A stretch of DNA of 64,000 nt from the NCBI GenBank assembly GCA_022711115.1, contig JAKLFP010000006.1:86214-150213 (forward strand), in the 5' to 3' direction. This document shows positions 15,451 to 61,080 of the stretch, piece by piece (positions within the stretch are counted from its first letter, which is position 1; every line of letters begins with the position of its first letter). The stretch comes from Candidatus Omnitrophota bacterium (GTDB lineage Bacteria; Omnitrophota; Omnitrophia; Omnitrophales; Aquincolibacteriaceae). The notes under the pieces are model-generated. The model was not told the DNA's origin, made no database searches, and saw nothing but the letters and a program-made list of their open reading frames with translations. The position numbers were made by a program, and so were the translations under genes.

Positions 15451-15491
15451 AAAAAATAAAATTCCTTAAAAAATATAGATCAAAGTTAAAT

Positions 15492-25992: not shown

Positions 25993-28900
25993 TTACGCGC
26001 TTCTTGCCATCGCGAACTGCGCTTGGACTTCCGTCACAAGCGTATTGATGCGGTCCCCAGCAAGGGTGAGGAAATTCTTGAGCATTTTAGGCATCACCAG
26101 CATCGTATCCGGCCATTGCGCTTTCAGGGCCACGGCCAAAGGTTCGCTCGCATAGGCCAATGGCTTGAGATTTAAAGATAAAATACCGGTACTGCGCAGA
26201 CGCGCGGCTTCTATATCCAGGAGTTTTCTCGCTTCATCCAGATGATCGGCTGGAAGGATCGGCGGCCGATGGGCTTGGGCAAGCTGGATATTGATTTTTT
26301 CAAGGAAGCCGCGGTCTGCGGCATTACGTACTAATACGATAACAGGCGTATCGCCGAAAATCGGACGGATAGCCGCGATCAAGCCATGATCCAGCGCAAG
26401 TTCAGGAGCAAGGATCAAGGCATCGGAGGTGGAAATTGTTTTAATCCCAAGGGCTTTAAGCGCTTGGGTGAAACGAACTTTGTCCAGAACCTGTTGAGCC
26501 TTTTGCACCATAGAATCCGGCAAAAGCGATATGGCAAGTTCCGCCGCGTTAAAGGCATAAGCCTGAAGCGAAACAAGGCCATCAGTCAGCTTTTCCGTTA
26601 CTCCTTCGAAACCTTGCAGGTTCCCGCCACCTATTTTTCTGTTTTCCCTGATCAGGTCTTCGATAGTTTTCACGGCAACACGCTCTGGCGTAAAAGTCGT
26701 CAAAGTAACCGTAGGAAGCGGAACAGACAAAGGAACATTTCCAACAACGGCTGCTGTCATGGTGGGTGTTACCGTATGAATCGCCATGGTTTGCCGCACT
26801 TCCGAACGTGACGCCTTTCCTTTGTCTGCCTGTAATTCAGAATGGATAGGTTTAAGATGTAAAATTTGCGCATGATCCCCATCCCTGACCGGTACGCGAT
26901 GTTTCCAACCCGAAAGCAAGTTATCGCGTTCTCCATAGTTTTCCCAGGTTAACATATCCACTACTTGGTAACGGACGCCCGGGTCGATCATTCTTTCAAG
27001 ACCGTTTGTAAGTGTTGTCGATACTTTCCCGTCACCGGCTAATTCACCCTCCTGAATGCCGAAAATAATCGAGGCAAAAACCATTTGCCCAGAATCACTT
27101 TTCCTTGCGAAAACAAGAGAACTCTGATTGGAAGGATCAAAAACTGTCCATTGATGTCCTTCAGCATCGGAAAGATTGTCTCCAAAAACAGCTTTGATCT
27201 CTGTGACTGCCTTCCGAAGTTTTGAGTAATATCCCGGGTTCCAATGTGCAACTTCGGATTTTTCTAGAAGTTCCGGTCTAAAAAGAGCTATCAGGGTCAT
27301 TAAGGGCTTTATGTTTTCTCCAAAGTAATGGGCCGCATCTTTAGCCGAAAAACTGGCCATGATCGCCAATTGTTCAAAAAAGTGGTCCGACCGTACAACA
27401 CCGTCTGTTAAAGTGTACCCTCTGCCTTTTTGGCGGACGAGTTGTTTCATAAGCGCCATCGCAGAGGTTTCACGGTTTCGGATCTTTTCCGCAATATTGG
27501 CAACTTCCGGCAACTCAATGGCCTCCCATTCTTGGACTTCCACAGCGATGGGCATCGAGATCGACGCAGGAACTTCCGAAGCGACTTCATCGCTATGTTG
27601 AATGGTGTGCTTTTTCTCGTATTTGGGGTCCGAGATTCGAACAAGAGGAACATTGCCCGTTTTTCCGACCAACCCGGCAAAGATAGCCGGATCGATGGCG
27701 ATGGAAGTCCGAGACTTGAAAAGTTTCCCCCCGCTCGAGGGGACTTCTTCTCTCACAGGAGCACCTGTATTAATATTCACCTGAAGCGGTTTTCCTCCTC
27801 GTGGAGTAAAAATGAAAGATTGGATCTCGGTGCGCCGGCTCTTTAGGGGTTTGGCGGCCGGATGACCTTCAAGGTAACGCACAATATAAACAGCCCAAGG
27901 CTGATATTTGGGACTGACGTTTTGCGTCAATTCTTTTCTTAGTTTATGGGCTTCCGCGGGAGAAGCTTGCATGTAACGTTCAAACCAATCACCCGCCATA
28001 CGAAGCAACAGTTCTTCTGTCAGATCCAAAGCTTCCAAATTAAGCCGGATTCTTGTCTTTTCATCTGCCGTTTCCGCTTCCGCGGCTAATTGTCCGATCC
28101 GTTTTTTAAAGGGCTCCAATCCTGAAGAAAATTTGGTGAGGACTTGCTCGCGTAAATATCTGAAGATATCATCGTAATAAACATGATGCCGTAAGCTGTT
28201 TAAGGCTTCAACGCCGCGCGAAGAAGGGCTTCCCGTGGGCTGCCATGTTTTGATTTCTCGAAATGAACGGAACATCCCGAAAAGCCCCAAGCCTTCAGCT
28301 GAATGTTTTCGGAATCTGCTTAAACCCTCCCACACAAAATCAGGCGCCTGCACAGGAACCGCATAATCGGAAAACTGATATTGAAGCTGGCTAAATAACG
28401 CTTCCCGCTCTTCATTTTCCTTGAGCATATTTTCAAACAAATAGGCGTGCCCCATGGCCTGTCCTGTCACCATATCCACACGCCAGGCGGCCGCTACGGA
28501 TTGATACATACGTTCACGGCGGGTCGCAGGATCTTTTCTTAATGCTTTGACTGTTTTCAAGGCTTCAAAGAGACTGCGGGCCGAAGGGCGCCTCCCCCCG
28601 CCTTCCTGGCTACTTTTCTCGCTATCGTCATAGGCTACAAAAACACCGCTCAAAATCTCCCAGTCACCGCTTCTTAAACGTTCCCTCAAAATGTCCTGAG
28701 TGATCACTTTGGTGTTCGGTTCCCCTTTTTCATTCAAGACATCGATCATCGCCCCTGTTTTTCTGTCGCGGATCACCCAAACCTCGGGGTTGCTTCCGGC
28801 AAAAGGTCCGACAACTTCGCCTCCGTTGGCCATGACTTTCATCATGCTCGTGGCGGAAGCTTCCAGATCTTCATCGGACAGCATAACTCCTGCTTGGGCT

Positions 28901-31900: not shown

Positions 31901-34900
31901 GACGTTTCAAAACTAATCTCATCAATCCTCATCTTCACCTGGAACATAAGCCGATACACAGCATCCCGGACCTCAGAAGGCGTACGTGCAAACACCTCCA
32001 TAGACTTGGATTCTGCTAATGTTTCCGAAACCTTTTTTGGGCTAATTTTCTCTGAAACAGTCATCACGTCGATCTTCTGCCCGATTTGAAACTCGGGTTT
32101 AGGCGCGACAGTCGGTTGAAGTGTGAGCGTGATCTCGCCTTTGTTGTTCTCGGCAGTCAATAAGAACCATCCGTATATTTCTTGGTGGGATGGCACATTC
32201 GCGAAAAAGTCGTTGCCCGTATCGTTCCAAAATGCTGAGGATTGAATCCGGCGACCTGCGCTTTGATAAATAACTTCAATGGCGTGGTCCCGCGCGATAT
32301 TCCACCGATCACCGATTTGGCGCAATGCGTCGGAAATCCGGTCAAATGTCAGCGGTTCAGAGGTCCACGTGTCTTTAGACGGAGCATAAGAAACGCTTAC
32401 AATGCGGTTCGCGTTATAACCGGTTGAACCGGCTTTCTCTTGGATATAAAGCGTCCCGCCTATCAATGCCTCGAATTTTCCTTCGTAAACAGTTCCATCC
32501 TGCATGGAAAGCTTCAACATCGTCCCCAAAGCGACATTTCCCGCTTGAGCATCCGTTTTAAATTGCGCGAACGGGACTTTGGCAAGCAACGTTTCCGCTA
32601 TGTTTTTGGCCATCCCTTCCGGCTTTGGTTGCTCTTCACCGCGCACTTCCGAGCGTTTGGAATCCACATAGGTTAGTGAGGGAGAGAGACGATCATCGGC
32701 AAAATGCAGCCAAAAAATTTCGCCTTTCTGAATAAGAATATCTCGCCATTCCATCGGACGGCTATAAGCATAACGCTGGCCTTTGCTAGAAACCTCTGCA
32801 CCGACCAGGGCCTTATCACTGAGCGAACGAAGACGGATAAGAGATTCCATCAGATCCGCGAGAGACGATTTCTTTAACGCCTTGACTTTTATGAGTGCTT
32901 CCGAGCCATGGATTATCTGGACAGCCTGCTGCGAAGCGCTAAGCCCGGAACCCGGACTCACTAGGCTTCTCAATTCCGAGCGGGACTCGGCGATGAGGAA
33001 GGAATCGCCGGCTCCGGCAATTTCGAAAGTTTTCAAATCCGGATTCAGAAAAGAGCGCCGGAACGCTTCGCCCAAGGACATCCGTCCCGCACTATCCAAT
33101 TCAATAAAAATGGCCCTGCGATGAATTTGATCCATATAGTCTCTTGCCGCAACCGGATCTTGAGGCGTTGTTTGCTCAACCATTTGCTGCCATGCTGTCG
33201 AAGGATAAACCCGCAAGGCTTTGCCTGCCTTTTCCGATACAGCGATAAGTTGAGTCTCCTCTCCTAACATGGTTCGGAAAGGTGCGGGAAGTTGGATCCT
33301 ATTTTTATCATCCACCTTGAAGGTATAAGAGCTGGTGAAGATCACCGGCGCCCGCACTTCAGAGCGGGAAATCACGGGTAAGAGACCTTTATATTTAAGA
33401 TCAGGTCTTTGTATGCCAAGAGAAAAATTTGAACTGCCATCCGCGTACCGGATCACCCATGGTTTTTCGGTTTTGCTTTGGGCTTCCAGCAGTTCAGAAA
33501 GCGATGGTAACTTCACCGGTTGGCCGTTCTTGAACCATTCCAAAACTCGGTTTTGCTGCGACGTATAGCCCAATTTTTTTGCTAGGGTCTCGCGAAGCGC
33601 TTGGGAATCCATGAACTTCATGGGCCAAGGAGCTTTAAGATCAGGCGGGAACCTTGGATTGGTGCGAATCCCGTATACTTGTTTAATTTCACCATCCTGG
33701 GTGATAAAAATTGCCTGGAGAGGGAAACGGCCGTCAAAGCTGCTTCGTAATTGGTCACCGTCAAAAAACCTGGTTTTAAACCGGCCAAAGTGAACGGAAA
33801 TGTTTTTGGCGCCGGTCCGATAAACGAGTTCATGGTCAGGTCCAAGATAAAATCCTTCGAATTCCGGGCTTCTCGGGTCCTGCGTTCCGTTGAACGCGAC
33901 AACTCCCTGCTCAACCGGCTGCTGATACTTCTGCGCCAAATCGAACAGGATTTGTTCTCCTTCAAAATAAGTGACATACGGATCAAGCGCCTGCGCGAGG
34001 TCCCTGTCCCCGAAAAGATTGCCGACGATTTTGACCGTAACGGGTTGCACTGCCTTTGCCCCTTCCGCTTGAGCAAGGCTGATGATCTCGATGCTGTTCG
34101 GATCCTTCGCAGGTTTAAAATCCACGCCCTCGATCAAATAAAGTTTGTCGCGCCAGGCCTGAAGCTGGCTAATCAATTCATTGATAGTGATCTGCGGTCC
34201 GGTTAATGGTTTCAACGTAATCCTCGATTGCCCGATCTGTATCCACCTTGTCGGGCTCGTCACGGACCGGCTGTAAAGAACTTGGGTTTCCGGTAACGCA
34301 ATGGCCGGTTCGGGTTTCTGTTCAACGGGTTCTGTTTTCTTGACTTCTTCTACAGGGGCTTGCGCTGTCTGAACCGGGGTCTTGGGAGAAGCAAATCCCT
34401 GCCGTTGCTGAGCCGCTTTCTCACGGAGTTCTTGCTCTTTCTGAGCTACTTTTGACACCCTGACATCCCACTGCCCGCTACGGCGGGCGTCGTCTTTATT
34501 CATTCGCACTTCAGAGCGGGAGGTAAGCTCGACAATTTGGACGGTAAGTCTTTTCATTTTCTCTTCAGCGGAAGTATTGAGTAATCGATAGGCCGTAAAC
34601 GGTCCCGCAAGCATTTCCGTCACTTCTTGAAAGCCATATTGCCTGACCTTCGGAATAGCGTAATTGAATTCCACAACCGTGACAGTTTGAGAAGCGCTAT
34701 CGACTTTAGCGATCACTCTTTTCCATGAAATGGAGCCGAGATTGGAATTGTCGATGCGCCAATCCTTAGAGATCAACACGCTATTTTCTAAAGTATCGAA
34801 GTCCCCTGCCGAGGTTTGAGAAGTGATCCTGCCGCTTGCCGTATTATTTTCAAGGAGCTTCAGAAGATCGCCATACGGGATGAATCTAACTTCCCCTTCC

Positions 34901-37900
34901 GCTTGCGAAATAACAAGATAAGATTTGTATGCGTCGTGTTCTTGTTCTGCGACAAAAAAGCTAAGATCGCCTGTGGTTTCATCTTTTTGGAAGTCAAGGA
35001 TCCGTTTCCCGGCAAGGAATGTTTCGATTTCTTTTTGAAGTTCCGCGGCAGAACGCCCATTCGCGGCCTCAAATTCAACCTGCCGTTCACCTTGCTTCAC
35101 GATTAATTTTTGTCCGGATTGTTCAATGATAATTGCCGGCGGCGCTGAGTAAGGCCCACCCCACGGAATGCGTCCTTTTCGGGACAGGCTGCGTACTTCC
35201 GAGCGCAACGCAGGTTTTTCCTGCGGTAATTTTCCCAAAACCGCTCTGGCCGCATCATGAACAAGGCTTTTTCCTTTTTCATCAAGACGATTTCCTGAAA
35301 CAAGCTGCTGGACAACATTGGTCACACGGGCATTTACAAAATCGATGAGATCCTGGACCGTCAAACCTGAAAATTCATAATAGGCCGGTTTGCTTTTGGC
35401 CTGCAAGGCGGCTTCATCCGTTTTTGTGATTTCGATGCCGAATCTTTCTTCGAGAGACTGCATCAGACTCATTTCATCCAGGGAATCCATGCCGAGATCT
35501 TCTACTAACCGATCCGTCAGACGAATTTCTTCCTCGATCGCGGGAGGTAAAACCTCTTTTAAAATATCGATGACCTCTTGATCAATATTTTCACTCACCG
35601 TTCCCCGCATTTCCGAGCGACTGGCCTTTCTTCTTTCATTGATGGCGTGCTGAAAGGCATTCGAAAGTATTTTGTAGGGATTTTGCGAATAAAAATAATT
35701 TTGCCACAACCAATGCGCCAGACCTGAAATCCCGATAAAAATCATGCTAAACGCAACCACGCGGGGGATCTGTTCCTCCGCCGGCAAGAAGAATGTTGCC
35801 GTCCCGATAAGAGGAAATATAATCCCCACCAGGACCTTCATAAAAGCACTGCTCCGTCGGAATTGGAGTTCAGCAAGAAAAGAGGTGGGGTTACCGTTTT
35901 CCGCTTTTTTGTAATTGTCGGCATATCGGTTTTTCATTTTTTCCCACAATTGTTCTAAGCGGTCTAAGGTTATCCGGTTTTTACTATTTGATCGGAGATA
36001 TGCTCTGACCGATTCATCAAGAGAGCGCAATTCAGACCTTGCTTCCGTAAAGAGAACAGGATTGATTAAGTCATGGCTTAAATTAAGGGCATCATATTTC
36101 AAAGCTTTTTTTTGCTGTAAAAGTTGAATGCTTTTTGAAGGAATAGTTCGAAACTCAATACGATCAAACTCTGGGACTGTTTCTGTCCTGACGTTTTTGG
36201 TCGGTTTGATGCCCATGGAAGATATCCAGCCTTCAAAGGTTGTTTCCCCTGCTTCTTCCTGAAAGAAGTAAAAACGAAGTTTGAACGGCCCTTGAACAAT
36301 GTCCTCGGGTCCCAATTCGCGGGACCGGATGGTCCCGGCAGCCCCCGCTAACCATGAAAACCACACAAGATGGGAAAATTGTGTCCTTGGCAAATGTTCG
36401 TGGTGGGAATTATAAAGTTTATCGGGAAGTGCGAGATAGTGCTGTACCGCCTTACGGTTCTTAAACAACGTGATCATAAGACCTAAGGATCCTTGCTCAT
36501 CACCTTCAAAGTCATGGGCATCCAACCGAAGCTCCCGCTCCCATCCGATGCCTCCATTTCTCATATTCCAAACAAGCGGTTGGTGGACCAGATCCGACAG
36601 TTTGAATAAAGGTCCCTGAACAGCCCGTACTTCGGAACGAGTTTCCAGCTTCCTTGGCATAAAGAAATTTCCCGCATCGTCCTTCGAATCCCCCATAGAA
36701 AGCTGCTCGATGCCTTTAAAAACTTCGGCAAAAAACTTTTTTGCTTCGGCCTGTCTTATAGATTTTGAAGCGATAGAAAATTCCACTGTGATATCACGGC
36801 CATAGCTATTCAGCATCGCCTGCGTGTGATAGTTCAAGCCTAAAAGGGTCATCTCGTCCCACGACAAAAGATTAAATCTCTGTCCGTCGCTGCGAATAAT
36901 GGCTGCTTGAAAACTCTTGTCTTGAACAAGATATTTTCTTTCGAGAAGATGTTTGGTTCTGGCGGTAGGCGCCGTGTGAAGCCCGAGAGCGTTTCCGATG
37001 CTGTATTTCTTTGCCGCGATCCAGCGATCTCCTATTTTTGTCAGCTTAAAATCAGTTTTTCTTAATTCGGAGCGCTGATCGTTCATGTAATTCGGCTTGC
37101 GGGTCACCGGAAAAGCAGGCTCGGCGGTTTTTCGGGCATATGCAAGCAGGTATTTCTGCATTTTTTCGTATTTTGTACCGACGTTGATCGGGCCTTCGAT
37201 CCCACGGATGGGCTCCGTCAGTGTGAATCCCGCGGCCCGAAGAAGTGTTTCGAAATAACTCGGCGTGACAGTAAAGACCCAGCCATTGAGAAGTCGATCG
37301 CCGCTTAATTTTTGATTTTTAGGCTTGAAGATATTTCCCCCCGGGGCCCATCGGACAAAAAGAGGCGCGTCTTTTTCGAGAAGGTCCCTGAGCGAAAGTA
37401 ATGCGTTTAGCTGTTCTTCGGGCGAAAAATAAAGGAGCACATCGCTGATAAAAATCCCTCCGAAAGTTTTCCCGTTGAAATCAGCCGTTCGGAAATCGGC
37501 GGTCATGAACCTGTCTTTAGACATGTCCCCGAAAGAGGGATCTTCGAGAGCGGCTTTGATAAGCGACGGCGAGATGTCCGTTCCCCAAAGGTCGGTAAAT
37601 CCCTGTTCCTTAAATTTCTTGAGCGCCCTTCCGATGCCCATACCCACATCAAGAATGCTTTTATCCTTGCCGGCCATCAACGCCAGGAACTGATCGATCG
37701 TTTCTTGATGCGGAGAAACGTTCCAATCGCGGAGCTTATGGCGTTCAAAATCAAGGGAGAATTCATCATCCGTCCAGTACCGGACATTGCTGATCGCCGG
37801 GTCGGGGGGTGATTTTCTGAAGGTTTCTACCGCCGCCTGGAATTCCGGAGAAGTTTCCATCAGCGTTGCCAAAACCCGGGCAAATTCCGGATGATGTCTT

Positions 37901-40900
37901 ATCTCGGAACGTTTTGGGGAAGCTGGGACTGCGGAAGATACAGGCAGCAACGGTATGAGCGGCTCATAATAATGTGGCGCCGGATTGTAGTAAGAAGAAA
38001 CGTCTTCTGTTTCTTGTGCGCGTAATTCATTGCGCGGTGGAGCAATGTAGATACCGTCAAAAACAAGTTTGCCAACCAGATTGGTCCCGGCGTATTCTCT
38101 TTTTACAATAAAATCTATCTGGGCAATGCCACCATCTAAATACAGTATTGGCACCTCTACTATTTGATTTGCATATACCCTGGGAATGTCTCTCCCATCA
38201 CTTCCATGCAGTTGTATTCTAAACTGGCTGGGCACATTAATTGTTTCAGCGCCAACATGAAGTCTCAGTATAGTATTAGTCGGCCAACTTGCCAGTGATA
38301 CGTAATTAATTTTCGCCCATGCCCCTTCCCAGTTGCCTTGCCTAAAATCAAAATTAATTGTCCATTTACCCCCTGAGATACTTTCAGTCACTCCGCTCCA
38401 AAGAATGCCATGACTGGTAACTAACGGGATCAGGGATATGTTTCCTGAGGCACTAAAAAATTCCTTCTCGAGCTCTGTGGAATTCAAAGGGCGGGTAAAG
38501 GATGCGTCTCCGTTTTTGCCGGGAACATTCGTAAGGACTGCGGAGGATCCCGTAAAATTAGCCGGATAAGTTCGTATGTCATAAGCGTTGTAATTGGTGG
38601 GGCCGGTAATATTCATCGTGACTTGATTTGTCGCAGGTCCTTTTCTGATCGACATCAGTATATTCGTCATCTGTGCCAGCGCGCTTTGCGCCTGAAGTCC
38701 GAGCACGAGCAGGCCGGTTATGACAAGTTTTGAGATCGCGCTCATCCGTACTTCAGAGCGGCCGGCGTTATTGTTGTCGTTCAGTATCTCCAGTAGTTTT
38801 AGAATGTTTGGCTGAAGAATATCTTCTGTTGAAACATACTTCCGAAGAATGGTTTCGACTTGAGCAACCCGTAAGGTCCTTTGAGCCGCTAAATCCCGTA
38901 TATCTCCGTAAAGAACACTTGCAACGCCCCCCAACCCAAAAGCAATAAGGAATGCTACTGCGCCAAATCCGAAAAGACCGATGCTCCCTATTCCTAAAGC
39001 CAACGCGAAAAGCTTATGACGTTTTAATTGGGATTCTGTTTTAAAGGAAAGCTCATTCATCCAAAACGTATATAAAACGGCTATCTGGGCAAAATCAACC
39101 TGCGCCTCCTCACCCTCCATTTGAGCCCATTTGTATATACTTTCCGCGATCTTATTCCATTCTTCTTCTTGATAAATCGTAAGCCGTTGTTTTACCCATT
39201 GAAGATCGACTTTCTCAATTGGTTTACGGGAAGCCGCCATAGATAGAATGTCATCAATAGCGCGCAAGGAATAAGGATGCGAAATTCTTCCTTTTTTGAT
39301 TGATTCGTTTAAAAAATTGATCCCCTTAAAAACTTCGGTTCTTCTTTCATCTATGAGAGGGGAAACTTCACCTGCAGGGAATGCCTCTCCACGCACCTCG
39401 GAACGTTTTTGAGAAACAGGAACTGTGGCAGGCATGAGTGATAGCCGATGACCGCTCCGGTTATAAATCACTCCATTGAGTGTTAGTGTTTGATCGTCAT
39501 TAAAATGGACGCTCTCAAGAGGAGCCTCTAAGGTTGCCCATTGGATTCCTAAATTGGGATAAGGATTGAACATGTCTATCAGATGGATCCCCGCCAAGTA
39601 ATTAGTCATACCTCCGGCGCGGACCCATTCTCCCCAAACTACCACCTTGCCATCCGGCGAAACATCCCAAACATTAGGAACCAATCCGCGATCTTCCGCT
39701 GAATCATGTAACTTAAACGTTCTCCAGGTATGCGAGCGCGGGTTTCGAAGATCAACCATTTGAAGCGTTTGAATGCCAGAGGGTAAACCTGGACCTACTT
39801 GCACCCATGTTCTAAGCTCAAAATCAGGATTGGAAGTAGCCCGGATAAAAGGTGTTGGCGAATATTGAATCAGTGGAAAAACCTGATCTGTTTTGACACG
39901 ATAAAAAGCCTCAGCCCAGTAAGGCGTCATATTCACTACGGTTTGGGTTGCTCCCACAATGCCGGCCTGTGCCGTGAACCAAGTCCCGGAAGCAAGATTG
40001 GTCGAGATCTGAACCCAGTAAGTACGGTTGGTGGAACTTTTAAAACCCATGCCCATGACTGAACCATTTTTTACAAAAGAAATTATTTCGACCAGATTCG
40101 TCATCTGTGCCAGCGCGCTTTGAGCCTGAAGTCCGAGCACAAGAAATCCAAGCAAGGCAATCTTGGAAATCGTCTTGGCGCGCATTTCGGAACGTGTCTT
40201 TGAATGATAAGTTCCGGGCAAATGATAAGTACCGGGTAATAGCTTTATATAAGTTTGCTGCCCCGGAGAAATAAAAGCCAGTTTCTCATCAAGTTTCGCC
40301 GTCACATCCACTATGTTTTCTTGCAAATTCCATGATGAGATAGCCTTAACAGTAAACAAAGGCCCTTCAGATTTCCAGGAGGGCGCACTCATCATCACAA
40401 ATCCCATCGCACTAAACGCTTCTATCGCATCCTTTTCGAATTCAGCCCTGGAATACGAACGGGCCGTCCGCGCCTCGGAACGCCGGATTCCGTTGCGGTC
40501 ATACGTCCTGTTGCCATTCAGAGTGATGGTTCCGTTTTCATTGAAGCGGATTGATTGCAACGGATCCGGAAGATCAAGAAAGATTCTTTGCTTGGTAGCT
40601 GGTTTATAAAAAACAGCACGATTGCCTAAGATTCCATAGACAACAATGACTCCATCCTGGGAAACATCCCATGGGAAAGCTGAAATACGCGCATAGTAAG
40701 CGTCATCAGAAATGATTGTCCATGTTCGATTACGCAAATTCATCATGTCAAAAAAGATATCCCATGATGTTCCCCCTGTCGTCCGCGGATCAATTCGAAA
40801 AGCGAAATCAGGGTTGGATGGGGCTCGGGTCCAACTAACAATAGATCCGGGTGATGAAGGCACAGCATACAAAGAACCGGCTTGTATTTTAAGAAACCCT

Positions 40901-46900: not shown

Positions 46901-49900
46901 CCTTCCACCACTGAAACTCTTCCAGGGTAGGCCGCCTGGACCTTCCGCAGATAGGCCTTCCGCTTGGGTGTGAGCATGTTGTCAAAAAGGACGACCCTGG
47001 ACCCGTTGGAAAGCGCTTCATACATGACCCCTGAGGCTACATAACCAAAACCTCCCGTGATCAAGACGGTCTTTCCTTCATGGATTTTAGGATCCACATT
47101 CGGAGCCACCGGGCTTTCGATCATGGATTTCTGCCAATTTAAAAAGTAGAGACGCTCGTCATCTTTAGGAAGGATCTCAAGTTCCCAGTTCTCTTTGATC
47201 AAAATTCCGCCGAGCTCATAAGATTTCTTGGAAGCCAGAAAGGCCGCGATCTTTTCAGGGATCCCTTTTTCCCGAAGTTTGCGTCCCAATTCTTCAGAAG
47301 ACATGTAAAAAGCTTCCTGGGCCGCGATCTCGACAGCGATATGATCGTCTTGCGTCACCTCCACGCCTCCGATGCTGCCAAGACTGGCCTGAAGACGTTT
47401 TTTCCAGTAATGAGACTGCGCCAGATACGAAGTAGCGACCGTTTCCACCACGGCTACGGCATCGGGCTTTTTGATCGGTTCGAAAGTATCTTCGCGCGTC
47501 AGCCCGACCAGAGGAGATTCCGGTCTGCGGGGCCTGTCATCGCTCGCACGTTCTAATTTTTTGACAGTTCTTGTATTCCCCTCGAAATCCACCTGCGGTT
47601 TGGTGTCAAGCCGCCACGGCGTTCGGCTGGACGCTTTGAGACTTTTTCTCCACAACACGCGAAAACTCGGGTCCCCCCACAGCACTGTGTCCTTAATGGC
47701 GTCCGTGGCGTTCCCGTAGCCGATATGGCGCCACTGCCCGTCGGAGGTTTTGATCTGGTTCCCAAGCCGGTCATCGCGATTATTTTTCTTCACAACACCC
47801 AATGCGATATGGGCTCGGTCATCCTGATTGCCGGGATTCCATGTCATTTGCCCGTAGCCGATCAATCGCTCATCCGCGATGGGGTTCAGCTGATTGTCCA
47901 CATTAAGGTACTGGACCACTTCAACGCCGAAGGAATCGAGAAAAGCGTTCACATCCTCCCGGAGAAGAACATCATCAAACGTATCCCCATGACCGGTTCC
48001 CCCTGTCGCGATCTCGCCGTTCTTGTTCAGAAAAGGCATTCCTGTTTTCGCGTCAAAAAGCGGCATCACGCCCTGTTGGGCGATAAAGATCCGGTCTTTC
48101 ATCCCGAACCACTGATTTTCCTCAAAGAACTGTATCGTTTTTTCATGGGTGATATCGCTTGTCATGATGATGACGGGAAAAGACGCGTCGTGACCGTAAT
48201 ATTTTGCTGCGGCCTGGATCTTCTTGATGATCCCGGCATAAAGCGGGAGCTGGCTCAAGGGTGTTCCGGGCAAAAATCCCTTGGGGTCAGGGCTCTTAAA
48301 CTCAGACCCCGAACCTCCGGCCGCCAGGACAAGCGCAAATCTTGATTTCCCGGGCATCGCCGGATCCGCCCGCAAAACTTTTTCCCGGGCCAGACGCTTT
48401 GCGGCGGCATCCTCCGCTGCTCCCGGTTCATGAACAGGAACGGTGAACGTTTCCGGAACTTCCGGCTTCGGCACTCCCGGCATCACAATCGTGTCCCGGA
48501 GTCGCTTGGCCTCTCTCCACAGAATTGTTTTAATCTGTCCGAGTATTTTTTTCTGCTGCTTTTCGCTTAAGGAATCCCACGGCGCCAGCAGGTGCTCCCA
48601 GCCGACTTCCTTGAGGCTTTTCATGGCCCAGGATGGGATTTCCGCGGCAACGCGTACTTCGGAACGTTTCTGCGAACCGCTTGCCGGAACAATCCCGCTA
48701 AGAATATCTTTTTCCCCCGCCGTCAGAACGGCATACGCTTGCGCGTGTTGTTCCGCAATGTCTCGCAAAACTTCTTCAGCGTAGTCTTCATCATCAACTT
48801 CCGGATCAAGACTTTGCATGACTTCTTTAAGAACGCTGGCGAATACTCTCGTGTTGAATTTCCCGTCGGCAAAAGTCTTCGGCAAAAGTTTCCCTTCCGC
48901 CAATTCCTCGGGAGAAAGGTCAAGTTTGGAGATCGCCTTTGCCGCGGCCTCTTCCATAACATGTAGTTTCAGGTCTTTCAGTGTCGGCACATCACGCAGC
49001 GCCCTGAAAATGGCCGGAAAACTGTAGCTGTTGTTCAAGGTGCTTCCCTGCGGGTATCCAAAAGCGCCTGTTGCGATAAAACGGATGTTCGGCATTTTTT
49101 TGAGTTCTGCCGGGTCCGCTTCGGGAGTCGGGTTCGAGCCCATAAAAGCACTGGCCTGGTCCTTCATGCCAGAAAAGATCGATTCCTTGCCCCACAAAAA
49201 CCCAGGCTCGGATAATCCTATAAAAGCATCCGCCCCTTGCAGTCCTTCCGCCAAACGCCCCTGATCGATCAAAGAAAGGACTATTTGGTTAATCTCGGGC
49301 ATAAGATCGCCGTATTTTTCGCTGAGAAATCCCGCGATGTTCTCCGGCAAACGGCCTTGTTTCTGCAGGGCCTCCATCGCGGCCAATCTTTCTGCCGCGG
49401 CATGGGCAACATGCTTTTTATCTCCTCCCTGCTCGACTTCGGCTAAAGCCAGTTCATGGGCCTTCGCAACCGAAAACTCCAGGCTTCCTTTAAATCCCTG
49501 AATGTTCAAAGCCGCCAGGTCATTTTTATGCTCTTCAAAGATTCCTTTTCGGCCCGAATAAAGAGGGCCCTTGGTGTCGTATACGATAATATTGCCACCC
49601 CCTGTTTTATCCATACCGAAACCGAGACGTTTCAGGAGAAGTGCTGTCGCGGTGGCAGAGGCCCCGGCGCCGGCGATCACCACTTTCATTTTAGAAATAT
49701 CACGGTTGGTTTCTTTCGCGGCCCGTAGAAGAGCTCCCGCAAAAACCATCGCGGTCCCGTGCTGATCGTCATGAATGGTCGTGATCCCTGTTTCGTTCAG
49801 TTCTCTTTCCAGCGGAAAACAGACCGGCGACCCGATATCCTCCAGCATCACCACAACCTCAAGTCCTTCCTCCTCGCGAACCTTGGTGACATAAGCCTGG

Positions 49901-52900
49901 ACTTGCTGTTTGATCTTTTCCTTAATCTCAAACGCTATTCGTTTTTTCGCCCCGGGATCTTTTTCTGCCTTGTATTTGAGCCACATGTCCCGCGTATCCA
50001 CAAACGCGATGTCCACGTTCACGCCGCCGAACCACTTCAGCAAAATCCTTTTCCCTTCCGATACCGCGCGCATCACGGCCGGCCACTGCAGTCCGATCCC
50101 AAGCACCGCGGAAGCGTCCGAAAAAATCACGATCTTTCTTTTTTGAGCCGGGAAAGACAAAGGCTTTTTGCCGTAAAGCGGCGTTTCAAGGTCCAGGCCT
50201 TTTTTCAGCGCGTCCGCGATCGCTTCACAAACGGCTCCCACGCCGGGGGTATAAACCGTCTTCATCGCTTCGATCACATCGACCGGGACAATGCCGTGCT
50301 TAAAAAATATGTCGATGAGTTTTTTGTAAGTCTGATATTCCGATGGGATCGCCGCCGGCAAGCTGTCCTCAGATGTCTCCCGAACTTCAGACCGGGGTCT
50401 GCTTTCCATACTAACCGCTACTTTGCAATTATTTGTGTCGGCCCGGGTCCTTACGCGGACATTTTCCCATCCCAATCGGGTAAGGTTTTTGAATGGAATA
50501 TCAAAGACAACCCAAGTTGTCCGATTTGAATCTACAATAAGCGAAGCTTCTTCTATCAATGCGTGGATATCTCCGTAGATATCAGCAGGCCTTTTCCCGG
50601 AAGGATCCACGTATAACCGCATAGGGATCCGGATCCGATCGTCCGGCTCAATGAGTTCGACTTGAAGTTGTTTGTGATCCTTAAAGAAGGATTGCTTAAC
50701 AAAAATATTGACGGCTTTGTCGTTTGTTTCGACGAAACCCGGAACCAAAAGGCTGATATCCTGTGCGGGTAAATGCCATTGGGGGCCTATGAAATCTCCC
50801 AGCGGCTCCCGAAAACTCCATGCCGTCAGCGCAAGAATTAACAACGCCATAGCCATACTTAGGTTTAAGAAAATAGCCCGTGAACTTAGGTTTGGATTCC
50901 ACCAGCGCCTTATCTGGGTGTCTGTGCGTGAAGCTTCTGGGATGGCAGCAACAGAACCGCCTTTCGGGGGCATGGTTCGTATTTCGGAACGGCGTCCAAA
51001 AGCTTTGGTAAGCGCTTCGGCAAGGGCTTTCGGATTGTCCCATGGAGCAAGATGTAATGAGGAATCTTTTTTGGGGTTTTTAAAAACAATTTTTTTCTGG
51101 AAAGGTTCAAGGCTTCGTTTTTCTCCTGACTGTATGACAGACACTTGTTTTGAGTTCAATCCAAGCGCCCGCTGTAATGTTAAAACAAGGTCTTCCGGAC
51201 TTTGCACAAAATCCAACGGGGCCATGTCAATGCCCACCCAAATACCGTTTCCAGCCTGATGAAAAGTTACCTCATACCCAAGTACTTTTGCCGTCTCACC
51301 CCGCATTTCGGAACGGCCCAGGTTTTGGCTTGGATCTGTTCTACCATTTGCGCGCTGATGAACGTTGATGATCGTTTGGGCGATCTCCATGGAGTTCATA
51401 ACAAAACCGTCTTTCATCACCGGTTTTACATTTTCGGTAACAAACTCCGAGGGACCCTGAGCGTAAACAAGCAACTGGCCGTCTTCGCTCTCAATAACAT
51501 GAATCCCATTCGGCAATGTCCTTCCCATACCTTGGATCAATCCTGCGAGCTGTTTTGCCGAGAAAACCGTGGTGTAATCACCGATGACCGCCGCAAGAGA
51601 TGTCGGATCTTTCCGGCTAGCGGCCCTCACTTCAGCCCGTTGAATGGCAGCAATTGCATTTTTTGCACTTAGGTGAACGGATGGATCTGAATCATTCAGC
51701 GCTGAGTAGAGCGCTGAAAGCGCTGGTTGGGCCTGGGGACCAATTTCCCCAAGTGTGATAATGGTCTGCTCACGAATCTCCGGAGAAGGGTCCCTCAATT
51801 GGGGCATTAACTGCCAAACTGCATCGCCCGCCTCAGAACCCAAGGCGCCAATAGCGGCAATGGCCTTTAAACGCACCTCTTTTTCCGGGTCGCCGATTAA
51901 ATGAAGCCAATCACTCACATTTTTCGGCATAGCCGTTTCAGACGTACTCCTCATTTCAGAGCGATTGTCCGCGGGATGTTTTCCTTCGAAGTGTGATGGT
52001 TTTTTGACAAAGGTGACTTTAGCGGTTGTCCCTTTAGGATAAGGATGTTTCAGGGTTTCGGGATTTTTTAAATCAACTGCTTTATGGCCGGGAGATGGAA
52101 TGATGCTGGCAATGTATTCACCGCCGCCTAGATTTTCACGTACCTCAACGGCTCGCTTGATAGCCTTGAGCGTCATGGTTGCCTCAAGTTTATAGATTTT
52201 AAAATGAAGGGCGTCGTCAGCTTTCACTTCCGTTAGCCCTTTGACCTTCGTCCTCATCTCGGACCTGGCAGAACGGCTTTTCAGGGTATCTATTTTTCTT
52301 TGACCCTCTTGATCTTCCGGTTGGATATAGCGGTGCAGAAAATGCCAAAGAAGAGATTCAGGAGTGAGAAGCGACTGGTCCCAAACCGGCATGTCTTTAA
52401 AAATCGTCTTGAATCGTTTCAGGACGTTGAATACAAAATCATTCTGCTTTCTCTGGAATTGCTGGGCATAGGCGATTTCGATTAACGGCCCCAAAAAACG
52501 GTTAAGAAACGGCAGTTCATAAGCAAGTTGTGTATTAATGGAACGATGCGCTTTTTTCATGGTTTTAAAGCTACGTTCCGTTTCTTCGAATCTCATCTTT
52601 TGCCATCTCCGGATCACCTCGGCAACCGTATGCTCCGGTCCCACCACCAAACTTGCGAGGATATCCCGCATCAAGCGGATGTCATAACCTGTCAGGATAT
52701 TATTGCCGTAAAGCAGCATATCAGGACTTGTATAAAGAAAGATCCCATAATGTGTTTCTTCAGGTTTCAAAACGGCCAACAACTCATCACTCAAAGCTTC
52801 AACCCCTGTCACAATCAAGGTCTCGTCCGGCGCAAGCTGCAAAAGCTGTTTTTCTCCTCGGTCGTCTTTAACGCGGATTTTCTTCCCGTCCAAAGCATTA

Positions 52901-55900
52901 CGGACATCCCACGGATTGGCAAATTCAAGGTCCAAATGTTTCAGCTTAAGACCTGCTTGAGCGAGCATTTCAGAGAGCTCTTCGGTGATTCCATGTTTGC
53001 CCGAAGCGCGCATGCCACCGATCAAGATCACCTTGGGTTTTTTCTCAAGGATCTCACGGATAACCTCCTCGGTCTGTTGCTTTTTGGATCGATCCACCTT
53101 TTCGACCAATGCTTTTCTTTCCTCTTCGGTTTTGATCGCTCGAAGTTCGTCGAGAGTTTCGGGCAGAAGTTCCAGGCTCATGCCTTCAAGGTCATAAGGT
53201 TTTTGGCCCTCAAGTTTTTTCGCCCATGCTTCGGGATGGCGCGCCAATTCCGCATTCATAATACGGATGACGGCCAAAATAAAGGCTGCTTTTCGAAGAC
53301 TTATTTTTTTCGCGTCGGCAATACGAACAACATTGTTAAAAGCGCTGATAATTTTATCTTCCATAATGCGGTTCACGGCATCTTCCGGCCATTGTTCACG
53401 AACAAGGTTCTGCCGCCATTCCAGGTAAGAAACGATCACGCCGCCCGCATTGGCAACCACATCCGGAACAACGATGACACCTTTTTGCTTCAAAATTCCG
53501 TCGGTTTCCTTGTTTTTGATCGGTCCGTTGGCTGCTTCAATCACCAATTTGACCCGGAGCAAACGGGCAATGCGTTCATCAATGGTATTTTCGAGTGCGG
53601 CAGGCACTAGGGTATGAACCTCGCTGGCCCAAAATTCTTCCTCGGAGATCACTTTCACTTCTTCGGGGTATTCTTTTGCATAATCCAAAATGGTTTTCCT
53701 GGGAAGCATGTTGCCGGCCGCGTCTTTCCTGGGTGCCAGGAATTCCAGAATCTTGGGAATGTTCAAACGTTCACCGGTTTTGGTCGCAATAGCGCCTTCT
53801 TTTTCTTTCACGGCCATAATCCTTGCTCCATTTTCATGAAAGATTTGCGCGCCATGCCCGCCCACATTGCCGAGTCCTTCAAACGCAACGGTTTGTTTTT
53901 CTATCTCTGTCCCGATGCCGAGCCGGGCTCCAAAAACTTTGACTGCTTCGCGCCAGACAAAAAACACCCCACGGCCTGTTGCTGCAGTCCGACCATGTGA
54001 ACCGCCTTTTTTCTCGGGCTTGGCGGTCACCACAGCAATGGGAGATCCTTCTACCATTGGAATTTTATGCTTTTCAGGATTTGCTAAATACGCGTCTAAA
54101 TAGGGTGTGTCGACATCTTTGGAATTGCTTAGTTTCCACCGAAATTCGATTGTTTTTTTGAATAATTTGTCATGCTTAATCTTTAAAAATTCATCTGCCA
54201 TCCATGCCATTTCCTTTTCTCCAGTGCCGACATCCGGAGCCGGAATATCATTCAAAGGACCGATCGCATCGGCATCTTTGGCAAGCAAAGCCTTCACATA
54301 ACCTCGAGTCAATCGTGCGAGCTCGCCTTCTGAAAGCTCGCGCGGATTCACGGCAATGCCTCCCTTGCCCCCTCCGTAAGGAAGCCCTGTGATGGCATTT
54401 TTGATGCTCATCCACATGGAAAGAGCCTGCACATCCTCAAGATCGACATTCGATTTATAGCGCACACCGCCTTTTCCCGCCCCCCGCGCATCATTGTGAT
54501 AGACGCGATAGCCTTTAAAGATCTTTGTGGTGCCATTATCCATACGCACCGGAATATTTACTTCAAGGATACGATAAAAGCTGAGGAGCCATTCAAGAAG
54601 TTGGGGATCAAGGTGGATCAGCTCTGCGACCTCCGAAACCTGACGCTTTGCATTATCAAGGGCCACCTGACCTTCGGATGCTTTTGCCTGTGCTTCTTTT
54701 TCTGCTCGCACTTCGGACCGTCCTTCAAGTTGGCCGGGCATGTCGGCCATCAAAATTCCCTCGTCATCTGACAGCAACGTCTGCTGACCGCCAGGCGCTA
54801 CATAGCGCGACACCGGCCTGCTGAGTTTTTTTCCTCCGCTGAAATTCAGGAAAGCGATCGGTTTCCGGTTGAATTTTTCAGAAAGTTTGGAAGCCCAAAA
54901 ATCAGCGCTAAACTGATCCGTTCCGGCCACTACCAAAATCTGGTCTGCTTCTGATAATTCGTTAAATAACCTGTCGGGAGGTGAAGTGATGTCGATGGCC
55001 CATTCACTCTCATTGCAGATGAGCAGTGCCAGTTTGAATTTTTGATTCAATAAAATGATTCGCGATTCTTGGTTATGAGCGTATTTCTTGAATTCTGTTT
55101 TTTGAACTCGACCCGTTCCATCGGAAAGGAAAAAGACATAGAAAGCCCTTAAGTACTCCAGCCCTTCGGGAGGGATCCTCTCCAAACCGTAGCCGACCGA
55201 AATTCCAAGACGCCGGACCGTTTCTGAGAGAATTCTTTCTCTTTCTTTTTCGCGTTCCGGAGTGTAGCTGTTCCAACCCACAACTTCATCCGGGCTTTCA
55301 GGGAAAACAACAAGATCGGGGGCATTTGTTCCGAATTTATCTTTGAGCCCTTGCAGAATCCCCGCCATTCTGGCTGTGCTCGCATCAAAATCATTTTCCT
55401 TCATTTGGACCCAAGCGATCCTTGGAGCGTCACTTTTTGCCTTTTCGTCAAGCCACACAATCTGTGCGGGTAACGCTTCTTCTTTTTTTCTCACTTCGGA
55501 ACGAGAAGAAACTTCGGGCGGCTGTTCTTCAAAAAGAAGATCAAGGGCCAACTGACCTTCTTGACCATAACCTTTCTGCCGAAACAGATCTTCTAAGCGA
55601 GGGCGTTGTACGAGGTCGCTGAAATCCGCATCTTCGGAAATTTGGTCTTGTATGGTCTTGCGAAGCAATTCCAGAATCCTTCCCGCGGATGAATAATCAG
55701 AACCACGTTGAGTCTTACGAATAAGAGAATCTGTTAACGCCGTAAAAATATTAGCGAGAAAAATAGTGTCTCGAGCTTCCTGAGAGATATTGGCAGGAAC
55801 ACGGCTGGCTGGTTTTTGATCCTGCATTTTTGCCCTCGCAATAGCACTTTGAATCCAGTCCATGACCGTTTTCTTGGTTTTGTTTTCAGTCCTCACTTCA

Positions 55901-61080: not shown

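Follow-up and report, generated by a model that had tools for sequence, protein, structure and literature searches.

A recurrent pentapeptide delimits the modules of a giant Omnitrophota open reading frame, a candidate bacterial polyprotein

Results

A delimiter motif at the module boundaries

The window analysed here, a DNA stretch of 64,000 nucleotides, contains one giant open reading frame (ORF) in which about 35 protein modules are set apart by a recurrent pentapeptide, R-S-E-[VMLIA]-R. According to the interpretation that we favour, and to which we give slightly better than even chances, the product of this ORF is a polyprotein processed at specific sites. A candidate polyprotein had already been proposed in the original prediction, which missed the motif; the presence of the motif at the module boundaries gives that idea strong new support, and it is from the sequence that we infer cleavage, the cut position and the identity of the protease.

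The pentapeptide occurs 33 times in the giant ORF, compared with ~0.09 occurrences expected from 2,000 shuffles. Together with four variants (RAEVR at aa 3148, RFEVR at aa 6080, RNELR at aa 6322 and 7683), the delimiters, characterised by shuffle statistics, variable codons and a sequence logo, extend over 26794..59202 on the minus strand, the first being located at 59188-59202 and the last at 26794-26808. The codons used for the delimiter vary between copies, and the motif is therefore conserved at the protein level, which rules out a DNA-level repeat as its origin. Counted by its delimiters, the product falls into 38 segments (median 222 aa), near the figure of about 40 modules given previously. 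The linker signature comprises only ~10 residues on each side, and the 33 strict and four variant delimiters represent recurrent consensus sites in short linkers between independently folding units. Homology blocks shared with relatives begin and stop at delimiters, and the adjoining modules differ; the delimiters mark true module boundaries. Four classical signal peptides and one transmembrane (TM) anchor start 1-9 residues past the motif, and the signal peptides found directly after it look cleavable, with AxA-type ends. Several TM-like segments are also present, in agreement with the signal-peptide-like module starts and TM segments noticed at the outset. The motif strings were also looked for in the literature, where all matches proved unrelated.

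The giant ORF is a genuine frame under purifying selection. It occupies 25993..61080 on the minus strand and runs from an ATG start through 11,695 aa with no internal stops, in a window holding no N. The 11,695-residue product and the same neighbouring gene are called in ENA ERZ27257456, JGI 3300009838, JGI 3300025706 and NCBI GCA_035390585.1, four independent assemblies from different samples whose first 9.7 kb is identical to the window. Furthermore, a strain variant 99.5% identical to the giant ORF is present in two Logan assemblies, and differs by one 9-nt in-frame indel and no stops; 25 synonymous and 16 non-synonymous differences among the 3,225 codons compared correspond to a pN/pS of ~0.18. 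The architecture of the giant ORF is also found in at least 19 syntenic orthologous loci, plus thousands of family members. Both the existence of a single 35-kb ORF and the view that its modules are selected rather than decaying are borne out by these data. The assignment to Omnitrophota, previously a guess, was correct as well: the contig belongs to a Candidatus Omnitrophota metagenome-assembled genome (MAG), the neighbouring proteins are, by exact sequence match, NCBI HOW59601-HOW59624, and all 80 related loci bearing a phylum name are from Omnitrophota.

A large family with genome-specific delimiters

An exhaustive profile search recovered 9,920 representatives of the family at 50% identity, while the genome scan for related loci used an 8-sequence alignment. 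A rare family, as would follow from the 14 matches in a word-index homology search, was rejected, since that number reflects the sensitivity limit of the search. Family members consist of a signal-anchored N-domain, cargo made of shuffled whole genes, and a C-terminal module that is conserved. They are best explained as modular precursor proteins forming a very large family specific to Omnitrophota.

In most long relatives, the patterns found enriched de novo are headed by this pentapeptide or a related one; among 96 long representatives RSE.R ranks first in 45, enriched 50- to 200-fold. Variants in the family include RPESR, RSESR, RAExR, LSDSR and [AG][AS]SLG. Each variant is uniform within a protein and a genome and differs between genomes (RPE[SA]R in CAYQTU, RSESR in CAZDVO, [AG][AS]SLG in JAKQXH, JAJDCD and JACROU), and within one genome it is common even to paralogs with N-domains only ~30% identical. 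Such a concerted change per genome would be expected of a recognition site that co-evolves with its reader, and the co-variation at the genome level suggests one reader specificity per genome. Hydrophobic segments are ~2.5-fold enriched 5-40 residues after delimiters across the family.

The C-terminal module of the giant ORF, recognised by its position in the family (aa 11430-11695, 25996..26793, minus strand), ends in ...FAMARSA-COOH. Such a module is placed at the extreme C-terminus in 19 out of 20 family proteins having one, and C-terminal modules end in [R/K/H]-S-A. In two independent delimiter classes the native C-terminus resembles the opening half of the motif, with R-S-A in the RSExR class and -A-A in the [AG][AS]SLG class. 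A Pfam search with the C-terminal module gave no match, its AF2 model, built from three sequences, had a pLDDT of 39.5 and was unusable, and no relationship was detectable between this module and the C-terminal tail of the 725-aa paralog described below.

The N-terminal domain and its paralogs

The product starts with a signal peptide or signal anchor read from the sequence (aa 1-34, MGYFKKLKRLLSSIVVITFSITNTISPSSVSYAQ, 60979..61080, minus strand), conserved in position in the family alignment and modelled as a helix over aa 2-25. It is followed by the family-defining N-terminal domain (aa 35-626, 59203..60978, minus strand), whose core, a parallel beta-sheet flanked by helices, presents the TIKI/TraB/ChaN/erythromycin-esterase fold. 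The domain differs from the TIKI/TraB/PrgY/ChaN/erythromycin-esterase superfamily by a ~300-residue helical insertion, located at aa 189-489 in the model, and by Pfam similarity that stays below threshold. Tiki and PrgY are membrane-bound or extracytoplasmic, and the N-domain would resemble them in placement. Residues [D/E/N]82-x-H84 (here D82), E112 and H503 (in G500-G-F-H503) are invariant or nearly so across alignments, and form a 2His/2Glu constellation, in which acid-x-His is followed after 28 residues by Glu and more distally by a second His, matched by sequence position and not by structural superposition. This pattern and its spacing are like those reported for the catalytic residues in RRSP (E3900, H3902, E3930, H4030) and Bcr135 (H85, E113) (PMC6254334).

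In regard to sequence similarity, curated Pfam and NCBIfam models, including PF01963, PF04187 and PF05139, gave no match to the N-domain at E <= 0.01, and among 15 N-domain members PF04187 matched four weakly (best E 0.0046). A sequence search of PDB was negative, and Foldseek found no significant match in PDB, owing to the dominance of the helical insert. The N-domain, having a signal peptide, should be extracytoplasmic, and the NAD(P)-dependent enzymes, the acyl carrier protein (ACP) and MraZ in the cargo look cytoplasmic.

Two more family members are present in the window. The second (1..6942, minus strand) starts at 6942 and continues beyond the edge of the window, so that its length is 2,314 aa or more; its N-domain is the same, its delimiters are RSEIR, RAEVR, RSEVR and RSELR, and its cargo is Pfam-dark. 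The third (61396..63573, plus strand) is a cargo-less N-domain protein of 725 aa ending in ...KKSV, related to the N-domain alignment with an hhalign probability of 99.8% (E 1e-30). It is divergently transcribed from the giant ORF and is the same divergent partner in 19 syntenic loci. Clustering of the upstream flanks for a conserved protease gene returned only synteny genes and this cargo-less paralog, with no classical protease among them. The M24 peptidase and the GGT in the window were considered as the dedicated protease and rejected, both being ordinary.

Cargo modules

From the twelve modules named in the original prediction, Pfam recovers nine, the phosphorylase-like one only below threshold. 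The nitrilase-like and HPr-like modules find no support in Pfam and PDB sequence searches, and the uridine-kinase-like region proposed to be fused to glutamate dehydrogenase (GDH) shows weak P-loop kinase matches only. The GDH itself is clear: the module at aa 2126-2943 (52252..54705, minus strand) matches ELFV_dehydrog_N and ELFV_dehydrog (E 5e-58 and 8e-50) and continues into a C-terminal P-loop domain. Over 97% of its length it aligns colinearly with P0173, a free-standing protein of 796 aa encoded in an ordinary neighbourhood elsewhere, so that it is fair to speak of whole genes welded into a single frame.

The remaining recognisable cargo, all encoded on the minus strand, is heterogeneous. 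HEAT repeats (aa 3045-3152, 51625..51948; HEAT_2, E 8.5e-18) are followed by a divergent malic-enzyme-like module (aa 3568-4143, 48652..50379), in which Pfam matches the N-terminal domain (malic, E 1.6e-14) and part of the NAD domain (Malic_M), and which scores 124 bits in NCBIfam against a cut-off of 1178. The next module (aa 4144-5171, 45568..48651; UDPGP, Epimerase) joins a UDP-sugar pyrophosphorylase and a GalE-type epimerase with no delimiter between them, the epimerase scoring 233 bits with TIGR01179 galE against a cut-off of 262. An inositol-monophosphatase-family module (aa 5772-6084, 42829..43767; Inositol_P, E 3e-23) precedes a block of paralogous secreted-type modules read from the sequence (aa 6085-7728, 37897..42828), four of which carry a signal peptide 1-5 residues past the delimiter, e.g., RSEMR|AKTISKIALLGFLVLGLQAQSALAQ. 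Further on are a SAM-dependent methyltransferase (aa 7729-8007, 37060..37896; Methyltransf_25/23/11), 57% identical to a module in the related locus L011, an ACP-like module with the DLGMDSLD motif (aa 8493-8630, 35191..35604; PP-binding, E 2e-7), and an MraZ-like module (aa 9244-9371, 32968..33351; MraZ, E 2.7e-10) found again in six relatives, where it is delimiter-bounded too. The last cargo module (aa 10098-11429, 26794..30789) is large and conserved and bears a GT35/phosphorylase-like PLP-lysine signature. Its sub-threshold Phosphorylase and Glyco_transf_5 signal is restricted to the PLP-lysine region, with TIGR02094 at E 2.5e-5 and PDB 1ygp at E 1e-4 over 59 aa only. This module is 53-59% identical in L005, L009, L011, L019 and P0054 and is the most widely shared cargo of the family. 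Besides these, the cargo includes many modules with no assigned family.

The modules had been described as complete housekeeping enzymes. Most of the families are recovered and catalytic signatures are visible, but the modules are not ordinary copies: the GDH module has only 40-43% identity to its nearest relatives, and none of the enzyme modules reaches its equivalog cut-off in NCBIfam.

Discussion

In the processing model that we favour, the precursor is laid out as a signal peptide or anchor, a ~600-aa TIKI-type domain, a variable string of cargo, and a C-terminal module ending in [R/K/H]-S-A. Each cargo module is equivalent to a whole protein, and the short exposed linkers between modules hold the five residues that would be recognised. 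A sequence-specific endopeptidase would cut the delimiter, most likely between the Glu and the hydrophobic residue, and thus release about 35 individual proteins from the precursor; some of these could then be exported via their newly exposed signal peptides. Prime candidates for the reader of the site would be the TIKI-like domains of the family itself, including the conserved cargo-less 725-aa partner, and the TIKI-fold N-domain, with its catalytic residues conserved, is a candidate cognate endopeptidase. However, processing in cis by the N-domain meets a topology problem, because this domain would be extracytoplasmic and much of the cargo looks cytoplasmic. Delimiter variants common to divergent N-domain paralogs would fit a separate trans-acting protease at least as well as the N-domains.

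Alternatively, the product could function as an uncleaved multi-enzyme scaffold, a single ~1.3 MDa chain threaded through or anchored in the membrane, with the pentapeptide as a hinge or as a docking, chaperone-binding or modification site. Published Omnitrophota giants are described as single membrane-threaded polypeptides with regularly spaced TM helices, approximately one per 370 residues, and the TM-like segments of the giant ORF would agree with such an organization, as would multi-domain modules that have no internal delimiter (UDPGP with GalE, GDH with the P-loop domain) and the fact that no dedicated protease was identified within the window. We nevertheless regard this scaffold as unlikely, if still a serious contender. 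Concerted change within a genome and unconserved flanks of the motif are commoner in sites recognised by an enzyme than in hinges, signal peptides that look cleavable come directly after the motif, and the native C-terminus mimics half a delimiter in both motif classes. Moreover, GDH, malic enzyme, GalE and MraZ are normally homo-oligomers, and permanent tethering in one chain is hard to reconcile with cargo enzymes of this kind.

It could also be proposed that the delimiter acts during translation, as a nascent peptide or as mRNA, by programming a ribosomal pause or 2A-like bond skipping with no protease involved. Indeed, the ORFs of the window and 282 family motifs show a codon signature beyond what the amino acids need. 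The first Arg is encoded by CGY in 79% of delimiters against a background of 39% (p ~8e-43), Ser uses AGY in 10% against 33%, position 4 has a codon ending in G in 61%, the last Arg is enriched in CGG/AGG, and Shine-Dalgarno-like tetramers are ~3.5-fold enriched within the motif. This bias may hint that something at the RNA or translation level also matters. On the other hand, the information at third positions is small (0.15-0.32 bits), the Shine-Dalgarno enrichment is partly forced by the Glu and Arg codons, and the motif differs radically between genomes (RSExR and [AG][AS]SLG) although the ribosome is conserved. We know of no 2A-like mechanism in bacteria, and altogether a signal at the level of translation appears improbable.

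Even less credible, at a very low probability, is an operon in disguise, with modules translated separately by internal initiation near delimiters that would be fossil or active stop-start junctions. The Glu codon GAR is one substitution away from the stop TAR, position 4 is often ATG, GTG or TTG (~62% of the delimiters in the giant ORF), and three modules start with Met just past the motif. Across the family, however, only about one third of position-4 codons are start-capable, non-start codons (GTA, GTT, TTA, ATA, GCG) are common there, and Met at +1 is not enriched (1.9% vs 2.0%). An R-S-stop-hydrophobic-R junction between long frames was not found in 88 loci, in a poorly filtered search that returned mostly noise, and where relatives seem to be split, the cause is a frameshift overlap or a scaffold gap filled by an N run. 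Internal initiation and welded stop-start junctions were rejected on the missing +1 Met enrichment and split junctions. Finally, the frame could be an artefact of assembly or annotation or a pseudogene in decay, resulting from chimeric joins, from collapsed stops or from read-through without function, as the MAG origin and extreme length could suggest. This reading has practically no probability left and is ruled out by the independent assemblies and the strain variant, the shared architecture of the related loci also opposing it.

In comparison with known systems, polyprotein processing would have a parallel in viruses. Flaviviruses, picornaviruses and nidoviruses produce unrelated mature proteins from one ORF, cut within exposed linkers at short consensus sequences that co-evolve with the specificity of the reader; a small residue often follows the site, and leader proteases occur. 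The giant ORF is alike in being one ORF of unrelated modules with co-varying linker sites, often followed by a small residue, and a candidate N-terminal protease domain. It differs in being a bacterial chromosomal gene whose cargo is metabolic or secreted, instead of a replication machine, and is shuffled between species; protease activity and cleavage are here predicted from the sequence.

Among bacteria, MARTX toxins are likewise large precursors of unrelated modules, with effectors released by site-specific processing. They carry ~3-5 effectors, cut at Leu-containing linkers and activated by host InsP6, in contrast to the about 35 modules and strict pentapeptide described here. The gingipain/HagA polyproteins of Porphyromonas gingivalis and the P97/P102 adhesins of Mycoplasma hyopneumoniae are also precursors cut at recurring short motifs. 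They consist of a few related adhesin or protease domains, whereas the giant ORF holds dozens of unrelated enzyme-sized modules, and the motifs, proteases and phyla differ. Pfam searches of the giant ORF and its neighbours gave no match to RTX repeats, the CPD cysteine-protease domain or a T1SS context; the MARTX effector RRSP (PMC6254334) has a TIKI fold, as does the N-domain. With regard to PKS/NRPS megasynthases, Pfam found in the giant ORF a single PP-binding domain and no KS, AT, C or A domains.

The statement that the ORF is unlike known giant bacterial proteins is outdated, as multi-enzyme giants of Omnitrophota are a described class, tiled with many distinct enzyme Pfams (Nielsen & Lui 2026, bioRxiv 10.64898/2026.06.07.730766; West-Roberts et al. 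2023, bioRxiv 10.1101/2023.11.21.568195). The giant ORF belongs to their 'multi-enzyme metabolic' type, having at least 10 kAA and many distinct Pfams (ELFV_dehydrog(_N), HEAT, malic/Malic_M, UDPGP, Epimerase, Inositol_P, Methyltransf, PP-binding, MraZ), none dominating by copy number. It comes from the same phylum, shares with them a signal peptide, TM segments, HEAT scaffolding, a methyltransferase and a starch-synthase/GT5-type module, and at 11.7 kAA is at the low end of the size range in the two preprints. Dockerin, C39 or S8 peptidase and SecA-like domains, as in the Archaeovorin/Dockerin-type giants (West-Roberts et al. 2023), are absent from its Pfam matches. West-Roberts et al. already speculated on cleavage of Omnitrophota giants, stated that the cleavage points were unknown, and noted that this missing information blocked even structure prediction. 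No inter-module motif is reported in either preprint, and the words 'cleav', 'motif', 'linker' and 'polyprotein' are absent from the text of Nielsen and Lui. Neither work describes the TIKI-like N-domain, the conserved module at the C-terminus or the delimiters with their genome-specific variants.

Whether the Omnitrophota giants exist as a single megadalton chain or as many cut products is explicitly an open question, and the delimiter motif, by supplying candidate cut points, offers the first concrete way to test the cutting of giant bacterial proteins. Giant ORFs can be segmented by the delimiter into modules for annotation and folding, neo-termini at R-S-E | hydrophobic-R are searchable by proteomics, and the TIKI-fold N-domain with its cargo-less partner represents a candidate protease testable by simple co-expression. 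If cleavage were confirmed, polyprotein processing on a large scale would be seen for the first time in cellular life, and the system would offer a natural toolkit of orthogonal site/protease pairs for stoichiometric multi-enzyme expression.

A broader proposal, on balance doubtful, is that Omnitrophota may employ a polyprotein strategy at massive scale, with thousands of Sec-targeted precursors led by a TIKI-type endopeptidase domain and carrying shuffled cargo, their sites co-evolving with a genome-specific protease. If true, cells would have, on their chromosome, a counterpart of the way in which viruses express polyproteins, and this would explain how Omnitrophota afford giant genes, providing sets of enzymes and secreted proteins at fixed stoichiometry, possibly delivered to the cell surface or to prey.

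Integrity and surroundings of the giant ORF

In the window, which contains no Ns and shows an unremarkable base composition with a GC content of 45-52% throughout, the giant ORF starts with ATG and continues uninterrupted over 11,695 aa (25993-61080, minus strand). The single 35-kb frame of the original prediction stands, as the same 11,695-residue product with the same neighbour was found in four independent assemblies from different samples (ENA ERZ27257456, JGI 3300009838, JGI 3300025706 and NCBI GCA_035390585.1), all identical to the window across the retrieved 9.7 kb. Two further assemblies hold a strain variant (99.5% identity) with one in-frame 9-nt indel and, among 3,225 codons, 25 synonymous and 16 non-synonymous changes (pN/pS ~0.18). 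The four matching assemblies and the strain variant rule out an artefact. The surroundings consist of ordinary chromosomal genes, namely Fe/Mn SOD, two DHFR, thyA, a Gld-type ABC transporter, Bax1-I, NUDIX, GGT, a split transketolase, an M24 peptidase, a flavodoxin-like protein, a sulfotransferase and MqnA. The two DHFR genes lie in tandem (9193-9684 and 9727-10221, minus strand) directly downstream of thyA (10278-11072), and an AT-skew peak of +0.20 (14001-16000) covers the region of the ABC transporter ATPase and Bax1-I.

In several relatives (loci L001 at 2432-2469, L034 at 13078-13216, L041, L051 and L069), a short frame overlap or an N-run interrupts the polyprotein frame, with no clean gene boundary at the break. 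Such breaks are probably sequencing or scaffolding errors, and automatic gene calls for this family would then often be split or truncated.

A pentapeptide delimiter between the modules

The feature that organises the giant ORF, and which the original prediction did not report, is the pentapeptide R-S-E-[V/M/L/I/A]-R. It is present in 33 copies, whereas 2,000 shuffles gave 0.09 on average and never more than 3, and is accompanied by four near-variants (RAEVR, RFEVR and two RNELR). These delimiters divide the ORF into 38 segments, whose median length is 222 aa. Since codons vary among the copies, the motif is conserved at the protein level. Its flanks are unconserved, save for a small residue past the second Arg, and linker-like composition extends only about 10 residues to either side. 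The strain polymorphism at aa 3043 (51952-51954; compared with loci L084 and L087) changes RSEMR to RSEIR, which keeps position 4 inside the permitted residue set. Four classical signal peptides begin 1-5 residues past a delimiter (for example, RSEMR followed by AKTISKIALLGFLVLGLQAQSALAQ), one TM anchor starts 9 residues past another, and across 1,000 motifs of the whole family hydrophobic segments are enriched about 2.5-fold 5-40 residues past delimiters.

Distribution of the family and shuffling of modules

A profile of the N-domain (aa 35-626) retrieved 9,920 representatives of 50%-identity clusters out of 1.84 billion, 6,928 of them at E <= 1e-30. Among these the domain is always N-terminal, in proteins of up to 7,498 aa. 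With one genome scanned per species, 154 loci were obtained, with several paralogs per genome, and all of their records with a phylum name belong to Omnitrophota. The window itself carries a second family member (1-6942, minus strand), which opens at 6942 and leaves at the left edge after at least 2,314 aa; its first ~600 residues are shared with the giant ORF, it contains RSEIR, RAEVR, RSEVR and RSELR, and its cargo gave no Pfam match. The divergent neighbour of 725 aa (61396-63573, plus strand), likewise without a Pfam match, represents a third, cargo-less paralog of the N-domain (hhalign probability 99.8%, E 1e-30). The divergent pair of a giant-ORF family member and a 725-aa type paralog is kept in 19 syntenic loci, and the cargo-less paralog is a candidate trans-acting partner.

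In most long members, the pentapeptide that de novo pattern discovery ranked as most enriched was a delimiter; RSE.R took first place in 45 of 96, with a typical excess of 50- to 200-fold over expectation. Module content is mosaic and most cargo of the giant ORF is unique to it. About 20 relatives carry the large phosphorylase-like module, at varying positions and with 53-59% identity in the closest, and a conserved C-terminal module occupies the extreme C-terminus in 19 of the 20 proteins that carry it. Members complete by the latter criterion range from 1,164 to 6,908 aa, the giant ORF being the largest seen. In modules shared with relatives, homology starts just past a delimiter and stops at one in the relatives as well (10 of 12 on each side), so the delimiter-bounded module is the unit of shuffling.

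Module content of the giant ORF

The original prediction saw about 40 unrelated modules welded together, with complete housekeeping enzymes among them. Pfam recovers glutamate dehydrogenase (GDH), UDPGP with a GalE-type epimerase, HEAT repeats, inositol monophosphatase, a SAM methyltransferase, a PP-binding domain and MraZ. For malic enzyme, the N-terminal domain was recovered and the NAD domain in part, while the proposed GT35 module is supported around the PLP-lysine signature only (Phosphorylase, E 3e-4; TIGR02094, E 2.5e-5; PDB 1ygp, E 1e-4 across 59 residues). The uridine-kinase-like region gave weak P-loop matches and nothing beyond, and neither Pfam nor PDB sequences supported the nitrilase-like and HPr-like modules.

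The enzyme modules are full-length and their motifs intact, yet every one of them scores below its NCBIfam equivalog cut-off (GDH 346 against 750 bits, GalE 233 against 262, malic enzyme 124 against 1178). The GDH module has as its closest relatives free-standing GDHs (415-425 aa) of several phyla, to which it is only 40-43% identical. Such scores and identities indicate deeply diverged modules rather than recent copies of housekeeping genes. With 97% coverage, the GDH and P-loop module (aa 2126-2943) aligns colinearly to a free-standing gene of 796 aa and the same two-domain layout (P0173; locus L088, 1540-3930, JGI 3300045117), whose neighbourhood in another metagenome comprises miaA, hypE, hypD and hemE. 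What lies between two delimiters can thus correspond to an entire gene, and the fusion of the two domains is older than, or independent of, uptake into the polyprotein.

Internal duplication is also present. Within aa 6085-7728 (37897-42828, minus strand), modules aa 6085-6366 and aa 7446-7728 form a pair of close paralogs, both followed by a 40-aa mini-segment past an RNELR, while modules aa 6367-6871 and aa 6968-7230 have a C-terminal region in common. Near-identical signal peptides (…GLQAQSALAQ) open all four. A K/E/A-rich, coiled-coil-like module at aa 929-1730 (55891-58296, minus strand) contains an internal repeat of ~130 aa, with units including …EPGEITQEIIDALPTQALKQ… and …EPGEITKEIIEALPTPELKQ…, and coincides with the extreme AT skew (-0.36) of bin 56001-58000.

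Lineage-specific delimiters and C-terminal ends

Within one protein, and throughout one genome, the delimiter keeps the same form; between genomes it differs. It reads RPE[SA]R in both paralogs of CAYQTU, RSESR in both of CAZDVO, RAE[LRK]R in L021, RAEVR in L025, [LF]SDSR in L027, and [A/G]-[A/S]-S-L-G (80 instances) in all paralogs of JAKQXH, JAJDCD and JACROU. Paralogs with N-domains only ~30% identical have the variant in common, while orthologous N-domains in other genomes go with other variants. Such concerted change at the genome level is the strongest computational evidence that a co-evolving factor reads the delimiter, and it favours one specificity per genome.

The C-terminal ends follow the same classes: in the RSExR class, complete members terminate in [R/K/H]-S-A-COOH, and in the [AG][AS]SLG class, members terminate in -A-A-COOH. 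Ends in -SA or -AA were found in 101 of 144 representatives, and the cargo-less paralog ends in K-S-V. The native C-terminus thus resembles the first residues of the delimiter of its own lineage, which suggests that processing leaves such a delimiter-like end, for instance by a cut between R-S-E and hydrophobic-R. A cut placed in this way would give new N-termini beginning with hydrophobic-R, precisely the start that the signal-peptide modules would then have (MR-AKTISK...).

The N-terminal domain

An AF2 model of the N-domain from 15 sequences (pLDDT 77, core >90) shows an alpha/beta core broken by a helical insertion of ~300 residues, and a disordered tail ahead of the first delimiter. A Foldseek search against PDB gave no significant match. 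In structure comparison, scores were 8.7 for TraB, 8.6 for Bcr135, 8.4 for HopBA1, 7.9 for EreC, 7.8 for Bcr136, and 7.6 for both RRSP and ChaN, Bcr135 and Bcr136 counting as one of six. At relaxed thresholds, PF04187 (Tiki superfamily, ChaN) was the sole Pfam family that more than one member matched, with hits from 4 of 15. Active TIKI-superfamily hydrolases have a 2His/2Glu motif in common, which in RRSP takes the form E3900-x-H3902, then E3930 and H4030, while Bcr135 has the pair H85 and E113 (PMC6254334). In the N-domain, [D/E/N]82-x-H84, E112 exactly 28 residues on and H503 in G-G-F-H are all (nearly) invariant. Judging from the modelled fold and these catalytic-type residues, the N-domain is very probably an active hydrolase of the TIKI superfamily.

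Possible mechanisms and comparison with known systems

The best-supported reading is that of a precursor cut at its delimiters into module-sized proteins, in which we place slightly more belief than doubt; our confidence that the delimiter is a functional recognition site is much higher. Besides esterases and a haem-binding protein, the superfamily of the N-domain includes sequence-specific endopeptidases (Tiki, RRSP). Obvious candidates for the protease are the TIKI-like domains, the conserved cargo-less partner among them. However, the signal peptide should place them outside the cytoplasm while much of the cargo looks cytoplasmic, and one separate enzyme would account for the uniformity of delimiters within genomes just as well or better.

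The delimiter could also act at the translation level through a pause, either as a minor rival reading or on top of cleavage. In the giant ORF (26794-59202, minus strand) and loci L002-L081, its first Arg is encoded by CGY in 79% of cases against a background of 39% (p ~8e-43), Ser by AGY in 10% against 33%, the codon at position 4 ends in G in 61%, R5 leans towards CGG/AGG, and Shine-Dalgarno-like tetramers are ~3.5-fold enriched inside the delimiter. This bias exceeds what the amino acids require and keeps a translation-level role alive; possible origins are a pause, a shared ancestry of the junctions, or microhomology that serves shuffling. Internal initiation at delimiters is not supported.

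Of the known systems, viral polyproteins are the closest functional analogues and MARTX toxins the closest bacterial one; the giant ORF is a member of neither. Cleavage has been speculated for other giants from C39 and S8 domains, with cleavage points explicitly unknown (bioRxiv 10.1101/2023.11.21.568195); Pfam found no C39, S8 or dockerin domains in the giant ORF. The original observation is confirmed and its interpretation as a bacterial polyprotein supported in part; the claim that this ORF is unlike known giant bacterial proteins is outdated, as Omnitrophota giants tiled with unrelated enzyme domains have already been described (bioRxiv 10.64898/2026.06.07.730766). Four features appear to be undescribed in the searchable literature: the delimiter with its variants across lineages, the family of TIKI-like N-domains, the C-terminal module that is conserved together with its ending, and the pattern of modules as shuffling units. 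The giant ORF represents a known class, with a new and testable organising principle.
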